DNA of 64,000 bases, from NCBI GenBank assembly GCA_037305845.1, contig CP147778.1, forward strand, positions 768,001 to 832,000, read 5' to 3'. This document shows positions 33,621 to 43,668 of the stretch, piece after piece. Source of the stretch: Candidatus Freyarchaeum deiterrae. GTDB taxonomy: Archaea > Asgardarchaeota > Jordiarchaeia > Jordiarchaeales > Jordiarchaeaceae. The notes beneath the pieces were generated by a model. The model saw only the letters and a list, made by a program, of their open reading frames with translations, was not told the origin of the DNA and searched no databases. Numbering within the stretch: the stretch's first letter is position 1; every line of letters starts with the position of its first letter. The position numbers and the translations under genes were made by a program.

Positions 33621-33870
33621 ACCGCAACCTCCAACACTCGAAATATTAAGTAAGAAGTGTAATCAGAATTATTAAATCTATGGCAAAATCCGAAAAGAAA
33701 ATTTTTGTTCAATTTTTTGTTGTTAGTTCAAATTATACTATGTTTGTTAATATTAGCTTTTGATTTTCTTCTTAAAAAGGTTGGATTTAGGGGAGATTAC
33801 TTTTATAATCGGATACAAAATTAGCTTAAGTGAAGATGGAGCAAATAACTCGAATGGTGATGACGACGTC

Positions 33871-34632
33871 TTGCTCATAATCTTTTGTGGTATACCGAGT
33901 GTTGGGAAGACCCTGGTCGCAAGAAGGCTGGCTGTGGAACTCGATAAACAAAATAATTCCACGTTTGTTATAGGTTCCGACGATATTCGCCGCCTTATCC
34001 CCACCCACGAGGAGCAGTTCGACCCGAAGCGTGAGTCCTTCATAAAAGAGACAACACTGCACATAGTAAACTACCTGCTCGCAAAGGGAAAAACTGTAAT
34101 CAGTGATGATACAAACTATTATAACGCCATGAGACGGGATCTCATAAAAATCGCTAAGAAGAACAAAGGAGAATACGCCATAGTATATCTTCACGCTCCT
34201 CTGGAATTTGCTCTAAAATGGAACAAGGAACGCGGGGAACCCATACCACCTGAAGTTATTCTCAAGATAAATGATAAGTTCGACGTCCCCGGTAAAAAGT
34301 ACAAATGGGACCAGCCAATCGTTTCCATAGATACATCCCAAGAACCATTAGAAGATGCTGTAAAAACCATTCTTCAAAAACTTGAAGATTTGAAGTCTCG
34401 AAAGAAAATTAAAATCAAGTCCTCAGATGAGTCGGGTAAATCGGAGGAGATTGATCATCTTACCCGCAGAATAATTGGAAAAATCATGGTTGAGAGAGGC
34501 GACAAGTCGCTGGCGCGACATTTGAGTTCTTTAAGAAAAAGTTTCGTGAAAGAAGCCGTCGAAAAAAATCTGAGTCCCGCTCAAGCAGAAAAAGAGTTTA
34601 CAAAGAGAATAAATAAAGAGTGTGGTGAATGA
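33871..34632 (+). CDS. pstK: O-phosphoseryl-tRNA(Sec) kinase (PSTK/KTI12 family)
   Basis: [36 protein letters not shown] and C-terminal helical domain; TTG 33871 follows GGTGA; near selB/sepsecS. Confidence 0.88.
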
Positions 34633-35690
34633 TGAAAATCTCTGATTGGATACCTCGAGACGGAGATGCTATCCTCACAAAAGAGGGATTCATTTTTTAC
34701 ACTATAGGGTACGTTCATCCAGACGACAGGGTAATCGCTTTCATTAAATACATTCCCAAAGACCTTAAAGACCGTTTCGATGTTCCTTGGCTGCCCTACG
34801 AGTGGGTGTTAGAGGGCAACCCACTGGTACGGCCGGAGAAGCTCTACTCTCCCAAAATTTACAGTTCTTTCATATCGTCACTGAGAGAAATTATTCCCGA
34901 TGCGGTGTACTTTAATCCCTACGTTGGAAAAGAATTGGTCACCGTCCCTAAAGACCATATAAAAGCCGTTTATGTACCCAACGAAAGCTTACAATTCCTT
35001 CTAAGAAAAAAAGAACATGATGAACTTGAAAGAAAGGCAGTAGAAGTCATAGGTATGCTCTCCAAAGAGTCTGGAGTACCAGTAGAGGATTTTGGAATAC
35101 ATGGCTCCATTTCTCTTCAGATGCACAACTACCAGAGTGATATCGACATCGCGATTTATGGGTCAGAGAATTTCAGGAAGGTCAAGGAAGCATTTCACAG
35201 TCTGGCTACTAGGGGCGAGGTCTCAATTCTTGAAGCAGACGAATTCGACCCAATAAGGCAAAACAGAGGCGTATACCAGAGCAGCCGATTTGTGATTAAT
35301 GCCATCCGAAAAACAGAGGAGATAACTGAGAGGTTTGGCCAATACAAATACGAAGCTACAAAACCTGTGGAAGCCGTTTGCCTAGTGGTGAATAACAACG
35401 CGTCGATGTTCCGCCCCTCGGTCTACGAAGTTAATAATTGCAAGTCAAAACAAATAAAGAAAGTAGAAGAGCCCAAAAGTATTGTGAGTATGATTGGGCA
35501 ATTCCGTGACTTCGCAAGTGTAGGAGAGAAAATAAAAGTCAGAGGCATGCTTGAAAAAGAAGAGGAGTTAACTACTGGTAAAAAAGAGTATAGAATAGTC
35601 GTGGGATCAGGAAAAGGGGAAGAGTATCTCTGGCCCACAAACAAGTTACCTCCACCAGACTCTTTCAAAAAAATAAGTCAACCTATTTAG
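34629..35690 (+). CDS. Pol-beta superfamily nucleotidyltransferase (COG1665-like), paralog A
   Basis: PRDGD, GYVHP, FGIHGS...[10 protein letters not shown]-terminal OB-like region; ATGA overlap with pstK. Confidence 0.82.
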
Positions 35691-35753: not shown

Positions 35754-36827
35754 ATGGTTCTAAAAGTAAGAGATAAGGACGCACCCATTTCACAAGAGGG
35801 TATAATCTTCAGGGTATACGGTTATGATCACCCACCAGACGCCTGCATATGCGATGTGGAGTACGCCCCCGAAACTATTTATCAAGCGCCGGAATCAAAA
35901 GCTGTTCGAACAGGCCTCCCCATAAAGTATTACAAGTTCTACGCTGACGGAGGTCTCAGATTCGTTCAGGAAAATTATCCCCAGTACCAGATTTTCTCGG
36001 AGCCTCTCCAACGCCTACTAGTAGGAATGAAAAAGAATCAGGTAGAAGAACTCAGAAAACCAGACAAGAAACTGGAAGAAATTCTAGTAAAGGAGCCCAA
36101 GGATAGTTTAATGAAATCCTTGAGGAAGGTTCTCGACCTTATTTTAGAACATTCGAAGCTTAAGCCCTCAGATTTCGGCGTCTTCGGCTCTCTCCTGCAC
36201 GGTTTTTACAACCCGGAATACAGTGATCTTGATTACATTATTTATGGCCGAGCGAAAGTAGCTGAACTTGTGGAGGTTCTAGGCGATTTTTATGGCGACC
36301 GAGTTGGGGTTCTTAAAAACGAGTTTGATTTTTTTGATGAGAGAGCGGAGCAAAAGAATTGGCGATTCGAAAACTACACACTCAAAGAATACGCATGGTA
36401 CGAGAAGAGAAAAGGTATCTACGCGGTTCACGACTCGAAGGAGCTAGGGAGAAGAGTAAAGATAGAGTTTGAACCAGTCAGAACATGGAACGAAATAAAA
36501 AACGAATACCAATCAGACACCCGAATAACGGGAGTTGGATGGACAAGGGCTAAAGCCATAATAAAAGACGACAAAGACTCCTACTTCATGCCAGCAATCT
36601 ACCCTATAGAAATCCTAGAATTCATCGAGGGAGACCGGGCGGACGACATAGAAAGAATAATAACATACGTCGAAGAATACAAAATGCAAGTCAGAAAAGA
36701 CGAAGAAGTCATAGTTGAAGGAATTCTGGAAAAAGTTCAGACACCCCAAAAAACATTCCACCAAATCACTCTTACCCACATTCCAGGAAAAAAATATTAC
36801 AAACAAGTAATAAAAATCGATGAGTGA
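35754..36827 (+). CDS. Pol-beta superfamily nucleotidyltransferase (COG1665-like), paralog B
   Basis: RDKD, GYDHP, FGVFGS...SDLDYIIYG. Confidence 0.82.
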   Translation: MVLKVRDKDAPISQEGIIFRVYGYDHPPDACICDVEYAPETIYQAPESKAVRTGLPIKYYKFYADGGLRFVQENYPQYQIFSEPLQRLLVGMKKNQVEELRKPDKKLEEILVKEPKDSLMKSLRKVLDLILEHSKLKPSDFGVFGSLLHGFYNPEYSDLDYIIYGRAKVAELVEVLGDFYGDRVGVLKNEFDFFDERAEQKNWRFENYTLKEYAWYEKRKGIYAVHDSKELGRRVKIEFEPVRTWNEIKNEYQSDTRITGVGWTRAKAIIKDDKDSYFMPAIYPIEILEFIEGDRADDIERIITYVEEYKMQVRKDEEVIVEGILEKVQTPQKTFHQITLTHIPGKKYYKQVIKIDE

Positions 36828-38582: not shown

Positions 38583-38639
38583 ATTCTACTATAAACCCAA
38601 ATAGTAGGACTCCGTAAACTGTTAATAGGAGGATTGTGC

Positions 38640-40031
38640 GTGCCTGATGCTATTCCGGTTAATATAGGTCTCATGGGCCACATTGACCACGGCAAAACAC
38701 AGGTAGCTAGAGTCTTAAGTGAAGTTGTTTCAACAGCAGGCCTGGATAAGCATCCGCAAGCTCAGGAGAGAGGAATCTCCATAGACCTAGGGTTCACATC
38801 CTTCCACTTAAACGGTTACCTGGTAACGCTGGTTGACGCCCCCGGCCACGCAGAACTCATCCGCAGTGTTGTGGCTGGAGCGAACATAATTGACGCCGCA
38901 ATACTGGTGATTGCAGCTGACGAAGGACCAAAAATTCAAACAGGCGAACACATTATTATCCTCCAGAGTTTCGGAATCTCAAAGGTAGTGGTGGCTTTGA
39001 ATAAGATGGATCTGGTATCCCAAAGCCAACTTGAGACTGTTAAGAATCAGGTTAAAAGTGTTCTTAAGGATACCATTCTGGAGGGGGCTCCCATAGTTCC
39101 AGTTTCCGCGGCTACCGGCGCAGGAATTGAGGATCTTAAAAGCGCTCTTTTGAGCATTCTGTCACCCCCAAAAAGGGAAATAGAAGGACCTTTCAAGATG
39201 CCTGTAGATCACGCTTTCCGCATCAAGGGAGCGGGAACAGTTATGACGGGAACAATTCATCGCGGTAGGGTTCATGTGGGCGATGAGATTGAGGTTATGC
39301 CCCTCAAACTGGCTGCAAAGGTGAGGTCAATACAAGTATTTAGGGAGTCGAGAGACGAAGCCCAAGCAGGGGATCGGGTAGGCATCGGTGTTACGGGACC
39401 GGAACCGGAGAGAATATATCGCGGGTGCTACGCTGGCACGCCTGGAACTTTGAAGGTAACCTACAAATTGATCGGAAGCATACAGATGAATAAATTGTTT
39501 AAATACTCTCTTCAAGCTGGTGTTAAAGTAAACTTAACAGTAGGGATGCCCACGGTCACTGCCACAGTGATTCCCTTCAAGAGATTCGAGGGAAAAAACC
39601 TTCTCACAGAAGAAGTGGAAAGTGGAGAAACCTTCGAAGCTCTTTTCAGACTTGATGAAAGCGTAGTTGCCGAAGAGAATACACCGTTACTGGTTTCACG
39701 TCTGGATTTGCCCCCCACAATCCTGAGAATCATGGGAAGTGGAAAAGTGACCGATACGGCTCCTGGTGGAATAGAATTCTTTACAGAAAAGACTAAGACG
39801 GGGAGGGTTAAAACGCCGGTTCACCCGAAGGGCAGCGTTATTGTTGGTTTGGCAGAAACAGGATATGGGGCAGAGAAACTATCAAACGAAACAGCAACCA
39901 CAGAAAACGGAACCCGGGGGAAAGTAGTTTCCGCTTTTGGAGGAAAGGGAGCGGTGATAGTTAAATTCGAAAAACCGGTTTCGGAGGGCGAAGCGGTTTT
40001 CATAAGAAAATATAAACCACGCAAAGTTTGA
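38640..40031 (+). CDS. selB: Selenocysteine-specific translation elongation factor (archaeal SelB/EFSec)
   Basis: GHIDHGKT, STAGLDKHPQAQERGISIDLGF, DAPGH, QTGEH, NKMD, DHAF.IKGAGTV; short domain IV with GKVVSAFGGKG. Confidence 0.95.
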   Translation: MPDAIPVNIGLMGHIDHGKTQVARVLSEVVSTAGLDKHPQAQERGISIDLGFTSFHLNGYLVTLVDAPGHAELIRSVVAGANIIDAAILVIAADEGPKIQTGEHIIILQSFGISKVVVALNKMDLVSQSQLETVKNQVKSVLKDTILEGAPIVPVSAATGAGIEDLKSALLSILSPPKREIEGPFKMPVDHAFRIKGAGTVMTGTIHRGRVHVGDEIEVMPLKLAAKVRSIQVFRESRDEAQAGDRVGIGVTGPEPERIYRGCYAGTPGTLKVTYKLIGSIQMNKLFKYSLQAGVKVNLTVGMPTVTATVIPFKRFEGKNLLTEEVESGETFEALFRLDESVVAEENTPLLVSRLDLPPTILRIMGSGKVTDTAPGGIEFFTEKTKTGRVKTPVHPKGSVIVGLAETGYGAEKLSNETATTENGTRGKVVSAFGGKGAVIVKFEKPVSEGEAVFIRKYKPRKV

Positions 40032-40068: not shown

Positions 40069-41370
40069 ATGAAAGGGTTAATACCCGAAAATATGCTTGA
40101 AAGAGGAATCATTGTTCTGGAATCCCAACTAGACCCACTACGCATATTATTCGAACAGAGGAAAATTCCGGAAGAGGGATGGAGCGACCCTCAAATAAAA
40201 TTTCTACTCACCGTATTGTCTATGATGGATACAGATAAGGACACCCAAGCCGCTAGGGTAGGTGAGAGAGAAGCTAGAGTAGCCTCACCTCTAGTTTCCG
40301 AACTTGCTGCTGATTTCTGTCATGGTATAGGACGGAGCGGCGAGATATCTGCAGCACAGCCCAAAGCGCCTGGGGCCTCAATAATGTACAACATAGTAAA
40401 TACGCTCGCTTCCGACTCCGTCAGGAAATTCGGAGCCCCGAACCTAAAGCATGCTTTACTGCTTCCTCTGCCCACGGGAATGTCAATCGGTCTCACAATA
40501 TCAGCCATGAGACAGATGAGAAAAGCTAAGGGAAAATATGTTGTTTATCCTCGGATTGATCACAAATCTCCCCTGAAGGCCATAGAGCTCATAGGCTTGG
40601 AGCCGAAAATCATCGAAGGTGAACTGGAGGGTGATGCTGTTATTGTACCCCCGGAAAGGGTTGAGGAGGCGATTGACGAGGAAACGGTTGCAATTCTGTC
40701 CACAACCACATTCTTCCCTCCTCGTGAACCGGACGATGTGAAAGAGATTGCTAAAATCGCACAAGAGCACGACATTCCGCACGTAATTAACAACGCATAC
40801 GGAGTGCAGAGCAGGGAGATAATGAAAAGGATAAAATCAGCAATAGACGCTGGACGCGTGGACGCCGTTGTTCAGAGCACAGACAAAAACTTTCTTACCC
40901 CGATAGGAGGAGCAATTGTCGCCTCACCAAAACAGGAAACCCTAGACGAGATAAGCGAGCAATACGCGGGAAGAGCCACCGCGGCGCCAGCAACACAGTT
41001 CCTAGCAGCGATACTAGCGTTGGGTATCAAAAACTATGAAAAGCTCAGAAATGAACAAGAAGAAAACAGAGGATACCTTGAAGAGAATCTCAAAAAAATC
41101 GCAGGAGAATACGGGGAAAGAGTCCTCAACGTGTACAACCCCATAGCCTGCGCAGTGTCGCTTTCCAAAAGAGACCCACAAAAAGTCGGAGGAGCACTGT
41201 ACAACCTGAGAGTAACCGGACCAAGAGCGCTGGGGCCCACAGACTACGGTTCCTGCTGCAAAAAGTACCCCACAGCTTATATAACAATGAACGCGGCGAT
41301 AGGATCAAGACGTGAGGATATAGAAAAAGCGGTTCAAAAACTAGAAGAAACTCTCAAACAGGTCAGGTAA
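40069..41370 (+). CDS. sepsecS: O-phosphoseryl-tRNA(Sec) selenium transferase (SepSecS)
   Basis: GEREAR, HGIGRSG...QPKAPG, PTGMS, DHKSP, INNAYG, QSTDKNF (PLP Lys), YAGRA. Confidence 0.95.
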   Translation: MKGLIPENMLERGIIVLESQLDPLRILFEQRKIPEEGWSDPQIKFLLTVLSMMDTDKDTQAARVGEREARVASPLVSELAADFCHGIGRSGEISAAQPKAPGASIMYNIVNTLASDSVRKFGAPNLKHALLLPLPTGMSIGLTISAMRQMRKAKGKYVVYPRIDHKSPLKAIELIGLEPKIIEGELEGDAVIVPPERVEEAIDEETVAILSTTTFFPPREPDDVKEIAKIAQEHDIPHVINNAYGVQSREIMKRIKSAIDAGRVDAVVQSTDKNFLTPIGGAIVASPKQETLDEISEQYAGRATAAPATQFLAAILALGIKNYEKLRNEQEENRGYLEENLKKIAGEYGERVLNVYNPIACAVSLSKRDPQKVGGALYNLRVTGPRALGPTDYGSCCKKYPTAYITMNAAIGSRREDIEKAVQKLEETLKQVR

Positions 41371-41527: not shown

Positions 41528-42208
41528 TTGTTGAAGGGAGAGCATATGTTGCCTGCAAATGTTGACGAGTTAGTTAAGGGTTTGAGAGAAGCCTCGCGTG
41601 TTGTGAAGGCTGACGGAAAGCCTTTGGATCTTTTCAGGGTAGCGTATCACGCTGCTACTTCCTTAAGGTCTTATTGTGTGGATTTCTCTGAGAAGGGTGG
41701 TGAAGGTTCTTCCTACAGCGCCGGGGCTAGGCTTTACTCATCCGATGGTGGAGAGAAGGTTGTGAAGCAGATAAGAGTTGGAAGTGATGTCAAAGGAATA
41801 GAGCTGAAACTTTGGAGCCTAAGCAAAGAAAAATCAGACGCGAAAATCGAAGAAACCGCCAAAAAAATTCAGCAAATCCTATCCAGTGTAGGTAAACTAT
41901 CTGGTGAGAGTCTTCAGAACTTTTACAACGCCATGGTAATCGAAAGAAAGTTGGATATCTCATTAAACAAGCTTTTAACTGGTGCGACGAGTCAGCAGGT
42001 CTATTTCGATGTTGCTGACGCTAGGGAAAGAATTATTCTCTTAATGGGGCGTTTCGACCCCAGCATCATACAGATGGAAAGCGCGTTAGAAGAACTCAAG
42101 AAACTGGGTAAAGACGACCCGATCAAAAAAGAAATTGGTGAAAAAATAGCCTTATCGATTCTCAAGTGGAAAAAAGGAATTGATGAATACATTTCCCAAT
42201 TGAAGTAA
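41528..42208 (+). CDS. Hypothetical protein within the Sec locus
   Basis: 226-aa ORF with TATA-like upstream sequence; no recognisable motif. Confidence 0.7.
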   Translation: MLKGEHMLPANVDELVKGLREASRVVKADGKPLDLFRVAYHAATSLRSYCVDFSEKGGEGSSYSAGARLYSSDGGEKVVKQIRVGSDVKGIELKLWSLSKEKSDAKIEETAKKIQQILSSVGKLSGESLQNFYNAMVIERKLDISLNKLLTGATSQQVYFDVADARERIILLMGRFDPSIIQMESALEELKKLGKDDPIKKEIGEKIALSILKWKKGIDEYISQLK

Positions 42209-42383: not shown

Positions 42384-42536
42384 TGGCGGCGGACTGGGGG
42401 ATTTTCGCACTCTTACAGGTACTGGAGGAGTGCATCGAACCCCGAACCCTTACCGGGTTCCACGGATTTGAAGTCCGGGGCAAGGGATTGGGCGAGGCCT
42501 CGATTTTAGGCATCTCCACCCCTGCTACAGTCCGCC
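42384..42536 (-). tRNA. selC: tRNA-Sec (anticodon UCA) with two introns (D-loop 42488-42515; T-loop 42402-42433)
   Basis: 9-bp acceptor GGCGGACTG/CAGTCCGCC + G73 + encoded CCA; 7-bp D-stem; anticodon loop CT-TCA-AA (42469-42471); long variable arm; 4-bp T-stem; removing both introns gives a 93-nt 9/4 tRNA-Sec with UGGU D-loop and UUCGAUU T-loop. Confidence 0.93.
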
Positions 42537-42555: not shown

Positions 42556-42565
42556 TTTATAAAAA
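42556..42565 (-). promoter_or_regulatory. TATA box of tRNA-Sec
   Basis: TTTTTATAAA about 20-30 nt upstream of the tRNA 5' end. Confidence 0.6.
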
Positions 42566-42672: not shown

Positions 42673-43668
42673 GTGGAGTGTGTTTTTTTGAGTCTTAAAA
42701 GTTTGGCTGAGTCTATTAAGAACTTTGATGGTGTTGTCAGAAAAAAGCCCATTATTGAGGTTACTCGTCCTCTGAGTCAAACTCTTGATTTTGCCAAGAT
42801 TGGCGTGGTAAAGTCGTTTGGTGAGGATTCCGCGGTTCTTGATTTGGGTGGTGAGGATTACCTCTTGGCTGCTACTGATGGAATCTGGCATAAGCTTTTA
42901 CTGGCGGCGCCGGAGTTTGCGGGTTACTGTTCTGTTCTGGTTAATGTGAATGATGTGGTGGTTAAGGGTGGAGAACCCATAGCGCTATTGGATACACTAA
43001 GCATCGAGGATATGGATATTGGTCAGAAAATTGTGGACGGTATTCTCTTGGGCTGCAAAAATTTCAGAGTTCCCGTGGTGGGAGGGCATCTTCACCCCTC
43101 CTCGCCCACTTATTCGCTTTCCGTAACAGTTTTGGGCCGTGCACCAAAGGATGCAGTTATTTACAGCGACACTGCGAAGCCCGGTGATGCCGTGATTGCC
43201 GCTGTGGATTTAGATGGCAGGGTGCATGAGGGATTTAACTATGCGTGGGACAGCACCTCGTGGAAAAGTCCAGAGTACGTTGAACAAAAGTTAAATACTA
43301 TGAAAGAGATTGCCAAGAAGCACTTGGCTACTGCAGCGAAGGATATCAGCAATCCGGGAGTCATCGGAACATTAGGCATGCTTCTTGAGGCCAGTCAGGT
43401 GGGTGGCAGAGTAGATGTTTCAAGTATACCAAAACCTTTGGATATGGATTTAGAAAAATGGGTTAAAATGTATCCAGGATTCGGAGTTATTATGACTTCC
43501 AAACCGAGTACGGCGTCAAGATGCCTCAAAATATTTCGAGGTGCAGACGTTTCGGCGGAAATAATAGGCGAAGTTGACGACTCGAAAAAGCTTTTAATTA
43601 CCGATGAGAGTGAGGTTTGTGAGGTTTTTAATTTCAAGCAGGATAGATTATCTGGAAAAATTTGGTGA
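42673..43668 (+). CDS. PurM/AIR-synthase-like protein (methanogenesis marker protein 2 type)
   Basis: F.GV.RKKPI, FGEDSAV, DGIW, AGYCSVLVNVND, GGHLHP, WDSTS, KDISNPG. Confidence 0.85.
   Translation: MECVFLSLKSLAESIKNFDGVVRKKPIIEVTRPLSQTLDFAKIGVVKSFGEDSAVLDLGGEDYLLAATDGIWHKLLLAAPEFAGYCSVLVNVNDVVVKGGEPIALLDTLSIEDMDIGQKIVDGILLGCKNFRVPVVGGHLHPSSPTYSLSVTVLGRAPKDAVIYSDTAKPGDAVIAAVDLDGRVHEGFNYAWDSTSWKSPEYVEQKLNTMKEIAKKHLATAAKDISNPGVIGTLGMLLEASQVGGRVDVSSIPKPLDMDLEKWVKMYPGFGVIMTSKPSTASRCLKIFRGADVSAEIIGEVDDSKKLLITDESEVCEVFNFKQDRLSGKIW

Follow-up and report, generated by a model that had tools for sequence, protein, structure and literature searches.

The genome of Ca. Freyarchaeum deiterrae is one contig of 3,576,204 bp. 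The 64,000-nucleotide stretch analysed here, which we call the window, carries on its reverse strand a tRNA-Sec gene (selC) whose three exons are separated by one intron in the D-loop and one in the T-loop. BLAST and nhmmer searches find the gene as a single copy in the genome. Its parts are as follows, on coordinates of the window unless stated otherwise.

42384..42536 (genome 810384-810536), (-): pre-tRNA-Sec gene (selC), 153 nt, CCA encoded
42516..42536, (-): exon 1, 21 nt; 9-nt acceptor 5' strand, D-stem 5' strand, D-loop U17-G18-G19
42488..42515, (-): intron 1, 28 nt, D-loop position 19/20; bulge-helix-bulge (BHB) motif
42434..42487, (-): exon 2, 54 nt; in its 5' part U20, D-stem 3' strand and anticodon arm; in its 3' part 6-bp variable arm, T-stem 5' strand and T-loop to U59
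42469..42471, (-): UCA anticodon, loop CUUCAAA
42461..42479, (-): anticodon stem-loop, 6-bp stem, one C-U mismatch
42402..42433, (-): intron 2, 32 nt, T-loop position 59/60; canonical hBHBh' motif
42384..42401, (-): exon 3, 18 nt; U60, T-stem 3' strand, acceptor 3' strand, G73, CCA
42556..42565, (-): TATA-like box TTTTTATAAA, candidate archaeal promoter

The TATA-like box ends 19 nt upstream of selC G1. The anticodon loop lacks a 37/38 intron. Genes of the Sec machinery, and a gene for a SelD-fold protein, lie nearby on the opposite strand.

33760..34632, (+): PSTK (TIGR03574, E 7e-64, below the curated cut-off)
38634..40031, (+): Sec-specific elongation factor SelB/EFSec (TIGR00475, over cut-off)
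40069..41370, (+): SepSecS (TIGR03531, 518.6 bits, over cut-off)
41528..42208, (+): Sel_Asgard putative selenocysteine system protein (NF045535, over cut-off); convergent with the tRNA-Sec gene
42673-43668, (+): SelD-fold 'methanogenesis marker 2' protein (TIGR03267, over cut-off); divergent from the tRNA-Sec gene

Between PSTK and ilvC lie two tandem ORFs of 353-357 aa (34629-35690 and 35754-36827, plus strand) that resemble each other by eye and have no NCBIfam match. The TIGR03267 gene is not the true selD, which is found outside the window and carries an in-frame UGA in the active site (HG-U-SCK). Since selC is present in only one copy and selD carries this UGA, a tRNA-Sec is needed. Between NDVY and AIG, selD also has an in-frame insert of 30 nt (genome 2458220-2458249) with TAA at its end, which forms a BHB motif with a central helix of 4 bp and an h' helix of 9-10 bp in 6/6 Freyarchaeum genomes. 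As judged from its sequence, this insert is likely a tRNA-type mRNA intron.

The spliced product and its detection

The sequence-only reading had taken the locus for a tRNA-Sec gene with introns at 42402-42433 (32 nt) and 42488-42515 (28 nt), and we find these coordinates to be exact. With both introns out, the exons (21 + 54 + 18) give a product of 93 nt that ARAGORN identifies as tRNA-SeC(tca). This product has 9/9 acceptor pairs and 4/4 T-stem pairs, giving the 9/4 fold, together with a 7-bp D-stem closed by a 4-nt loop, a 6-bp variable arm, G73, and an encoded CCA; a 7-bp D-stem, 4-nt loop, long variable arm, and G73 are among the features by which archaeal tRNA-Sec is defined (PMC3035459, PMC9499178). 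Four acceptor pairs show changes on both sides among 11 genes. The anticodon stem has 5/6 pairs, and the C-U mismatch that had been pointed out there is real (42478 C vs 42462 T). A sequencing error can be eliminated as its source because the mismatch recurs across the genus, in each of the four Freyarchaeum genes and in three metagenome contigs; the sister family has U-A instead.

To score the product, we took the intron-free Asgard tRNA-Sec genes that Rfam had detected, 28 distinct ones, and built an nhmmer profile from them. The score is 42.7 bits with both inserts removed, 32.5-34.7 bits with one removed, and 24.2 bits for the unspliced gene. Cleavage after the second bulge nucleotide, as originally proposed, is the best of the 15 registers tested, although the gap to the runner-up (40.5 bits) is only about 2 bits. 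This register restores the D-loop UGGU, as in 27/28 intron-free genes, and the T-loop UUCGAUU, as in 28/28.

The expectation that standard finders would miss the gene is borne out. ARAGORN does not detect selC in the 64-kb window or, with intron mode, in the genome. Rfam RF01852 gives the unspliced gene 27 bits against a gathering score of 47, and the match has a wrong 3' end at 42418, with part of the T-loop insert taken as the acceptor 3' strand. At E 0.01, Rfam yields no match in five other Freyarchaeum genomes, three of which have selC. The locus has been published as Freyarchaeia tRNA no. 38, SeC TCA, at 810415-810536 (Valentin-Alvarado et al. 2024, Suppl. Data 4, PMC11291895), where it was found by Secmarker with 35.5 bits and one intron. 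The published coordinates fall on tRNA genes in the genome, and the entry agrees with ours in locus, genome, and identity as an intron-containing tRNA-Sec. However, it is 31 nt short at the 3' end and lists one intron, whereas the correct gene spans 810384-810536 and has two. The published 3' end falls inside the T-loop intron and allows at most 6/9 acceptor pairs. We attribute this wrong end to the resemblance of the T-loop intron to exon 3. An origin of the intron by duplication, considered from the same likeness, was dropped; the likeness is missing in relatives.

BHB motifs and their conservation

The T-loop intron forms the hBHBh' motif that the sequence-only reading had described, with helices of 4/4/5 bp: h is GGGG/CCCC, H is TTCG/CGAA, and h' is CACTC/GAGTG, with the 3-nt bulges AT^G and AA^T. 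That reading had called the D-loop motif relaxed and had expected it to open the D-stem, and our analysis agrees. Here the helices are 1/4/2 bp, with H GGGT/GCCC and bulges GG^A and AA^T, while the 2 bp of h' are followed by one mismatch and then 4 more bp; formation of this motif pushes the 3' strand of the D-stem aside. When each intron was dinucleotide-shuffled 20,000 times in place, a motif at least as good as the real one came up in 0.5% of shuffles for the D-loop intron and in 0/20,000 for the T-loop intron. By rough constrained folding, adopting the D-loop BHB motif costs 8.7 kcal/mol relative to the minimum-energy fold (6.4-8.8 across 11 genes), and the T-loop motif 3.4 kcal/mol. At minimum energy the precursor retains its whole D-stem, which continues into the D-loop insert.

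Both introns are found at identical sites in 10/10 relatives. They are present in three other Freyarchaeum genomes and three metagenome contigs; four sister-family genomes have an extra 37/38 intron in selC, and three Atabeyarchaeia have an extra variable-arm insert. Two further genus relatives gave no match, and their contigs stop just after the Sel_Asgard gene. The exons are 84-91/93 identical in seven same-order genes while the intron interiors drift, and within the genus exons that are 91/93 identical flank introns that align at only about 60-70%. Across 11 genes, the D-loop intron varies from 16 to 39 nt and the T-loop intron from 17 to 33 nt, with only the ends kept. In the D-loop motif the central helix is 4 bp in 11/11 genes and is held each time by the last six bases of the insert, with h of 1-2 bp and h' of 1-11 bp. 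A G-run D-stem strand that permits the slip is found in all genes with a 19/20 intron. The T-loop central helix is 4 bp in 41/57 genes and 3 bp in 16/57. The two-BHB structure holds in 98.6% of cells of an alignment of 11 precursors vs 43-58% for slid controls, a test that leans in favour of the structure as it was derived from the same sequences. Both h' helices show changes on both sides in these precursors.

Among the 11 genes recovered from three intron-rich families, none is intron-free. A T-loop search of metagenome contigs gave six contigs, with introns in all, and no viral contig searched has the gene. The metagenome contigs also hold no intron-free Freyarchaeum-type selC and no spliced D-loop junction, the latter result being uninformative for a 93-nt RNA. 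The best match to either intron elsewhere in the genome is 16 nt (E 0.01) and lies outside the listed tRNA genes. With no convincing copy, we see no sign of copying between tRNAs, unlike in Thermoproteales, where introns have been copied between tRNA genes (Yoshihisa 2014, PMC4090602). In Thermoproteales, too, a single tRNA gene can hold several BHB introns at non-canonical sites, 59/60 among them, and the EndA is alpha2beta2; position 19/20 is absent from the non-exhaustive list of intron sites in the same review.

selC introns across archaea

The sequence-only reading had proposed a survey of selC introns across Asgard lineages and had cited T-arm introns in Lokiarchaeal tRNA-Sec. This background is accurate: one 31-nt T-loop intron has been described in Lokiarchaeota tRNA-Sec (Mariotti et al. 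2016, PMC4989117; Santesmasses et al. 2017, PMC5330540). That tRNA resembles the Freyarchaeum one in its archaeal 9/4 fold, 7-bp D-stem, and T-loop intron of about 30 nt, and its gene also lies near EFSec on the opposite strand, but it has no D-loop intron. The survey was run on 400 Asgard genomes. A selC-like 3' end with a T-loop intron occurs in about 66/400 (counted by eye), and an intron-free T-loop pattern is matched in 155/400, a few of these by chance. Among 57 distinct T-loop-intron genes, 13 have that intron alone, 35 have two introns, and 9 have three; since the sample was selected for the T-loop intron, these counts are not phylum frequencies. To the sequence-only reading, a doubly interrupted selC had looked rarer. 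This does not hold, with two or three introns in 44/57 genes of the sample and tRNA-Sec genes with three introns already published for Atabeyarchaeia-1 and -2 (PMC11291895). The published table gives counts and not positions; in our own analysis the two Atabeyarchaeia genes share the 19/20 and 59/60 sites and the G-run D-stem with Freyarchaeum and differ in having a third insert in the variable arm.

Most two-intron selC genes are Lokiarchaeial, and their second intron is at D-stem position 15/16, not 19/20. In many Lokiarchaeial selC genes this intron is 29-34 nt long with a 4-bp central helix; it also occurs without a T-loop intron, in five genomes. D-stem and T-loop introns are combined in the genes L072, L123, L105, and L141. 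Among Lokiarchaeial selC genes whose exons are nearly identical, the number of introns is 0, 1 or 2. In some of the Asgard genomes surveyed a 37/38 intron is the only one in selC, and two genes of 190-193 nt with introns at 15/16, 37/38, and 59/60 splice to 93 nt. A Lokiarchaeial-type two-intron selC is found on LJUH01000039.1 ('Chlamydiae bacterium SM23_39'), which is probably a misbinned archaeal contig. One Lokiarchaeial genome (G239) appears to hold both a T-intron selC end (C42:23845-23899) and an intron-free selC (C106:5017-5142); the co-occurrence may reflect contamination.

The 59/60 intron is also present in six Bathyarchaeia and three Borrarchaeum selC genes. The Bathyarchaeia BHB introns are 20-21 nt in six genes, and we found no papers on Bathyarchaeial selC introns. 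According to a 2022 review, no archaea other than Lokiarchaeota have an intron in tRNA-Sec (PMC9499178), a statement that the Bathyarchaeia and Borrarchaeum introns update.

Splicing, alternative readings, and significance

Taken together, the 153-nt locus is very probably a single working tRNA-Sec gene with two introns that are tolerated passengers and not a Sec-specific switch. What we observe in support of this reading is the sequence, the motifs, their conservation, and genes for the enzymes, namely two EndA paralogues and RtcB. Among solved structures, the catalytic alpha subunit of EndA comes nearest to the Aeropyrum pernix enzyme (E 8e-43). It retains catalytic Y125/H133/K164 as well as lysine K44 (as K66) of the Crenarchaea-specific specificity loop, and this loop enables EndA to cleave at D-loop and relaxed sites (PMC3241643). 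Introns are the norm for tRNA genes in this organism: 92-95% of them carry introns and over half carry several (PMC11291895), and our scan finds a 59/60 BHB-type intron in at least 15/37 other listed tRNA genes. A 2026 preprint on Asgard archaea reports 2.2 intervening sequences per tRNA gene, with at least two in 71%, and describes missed inserts as mostly D-arm and BHB-enriched and two-subunit EndA as common (Goswami et al., bioRxiv 10.64898/2026.10.13.758758). It covers the same families, and its main text does not single out tRNA-Sec.

Cleavage, ligation, and any order of events are what we infer from these observations. As in established archaeal splicing, the two-subunit EndA would make four cuts in the 153-nt transcript, one behind base 2 of every 3-nt bulge, and RtcB would rejoin the exons twice. 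The T-loop site would be a ready-made canonical motif built on the T-stem. At the D-loop site, GGGU would leave the D-stem and pair with intron GCCC, so that the site forms only when the D-stem G-run slips and an enzyme accepting non-canonical sites is needed. Given the modelled cost of 8.7 vs 3.4 kcal/mol, the D-loop cut may be slower or may precede D-stem closure. U20 and U59 are both in contact with PSTK, and U20 is part of a C56-G19-U20 triplet (PMC3035459). As both intron sites are at the elbow of the tRNA (U20, U59), both introns must go before the normal tRNA fold can form. The resulting 93-nt 9/4 tRNA-Sec with its 7-bp D-stem would then serve the neighbouring PSTK, SepSecS, and EFSec. 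The introns themselves would be passengers in an accumulation of tRNA introns throughout the lineage, kept in place by the requirement that they remain spliceable; their neutrality is likewise inferred and is argued from distribution.

Two other readings concern the integrity of the gene. Only one insert might be spliced, with the D-loop insert staying as an extended D-arm or the gene ending at 42415. The minimum-energy fold, which extends the full D-stem into the insert, the published one-intron entry (810415-810536), and the Rfam 3' end at 42418 all speak for this, but we regard it as very unlikely. The 122-nt version has at most 6/9 acceptor pairs and no CCA, and its sequence is not conserved in relatives, whereas the 153-nt version has 9/9 pairs and ends in GCCA. 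Removal of a single insert leaves the profile score at 32.5-34.7 bits vs 42.7 with both out, and the 4-bp central helix of the D insert persists in 11/11 genes despite lengths of 16-39 nt. A pseudogene or assembly artefact, in which a decayed tRNA acquired chance insertions, could be suspected from the C-U mismatch and from the failure of ARAGORN to see the gene. This is barely credible and is already contradicted by conservation: independent assemblies have the same inserts at the same sites, the mismatch is conserved in the genus, and no other selC exists in this genome, which has full Sec machinery and a selD that contains UGA.

The remaining alternative takes the introns as a regulatory gate, in which slow removal of the D-loop intron and the BHB intron in selD mRNA couple Sec use to EndA/RtcB; the sequence-only reading had raised a related idea, that dependence on two EndA events makes Sec decoding a possible control point. 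If true, this would be an EndA-dependent regulatory layer over several levels of the Sec pathway and not a passive intron load. The D-loop motif does compete with the D-stem, the selD intron with its in-frame TAA is present in 6/6 Freyarchaeum genomes, and intron-free selC is seen in 0/11 genes of the three intron-rich families. We nevertheless consider a gate improbable, and a Sec-specific control point is not supported by the comparison with other tRNAs. With introns in 92-95% of tRNA genes and at least 15/37 others interrupted at 59/60, EndA limits all translation; the introns are free to vary in length (16-39 nt and 17-33 nt) and in their interior sequence, and Lokiarchaeial selC genes with near-identical exons exist with 0, 1 or 2 introns.

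The passenger reading of the two-intron selC calls for no new mechanism, multi-intron tRNA genes being the norm in the lineage. The finding matters mainly for annotation: the published coordinates are wrong, and the Rfam gathering score misses the gene. Surveys of the Sec trait that rely on selC will under-count Asgard archaea. As a single-copy orthologue with five intron sites that are independently present or absent, selC lends itself to tracing how introns are gained and lost. For the organism itself, almost every tRNA gene of Freyarchaeum deiterrae has introns, so EndA is needed for all translation.
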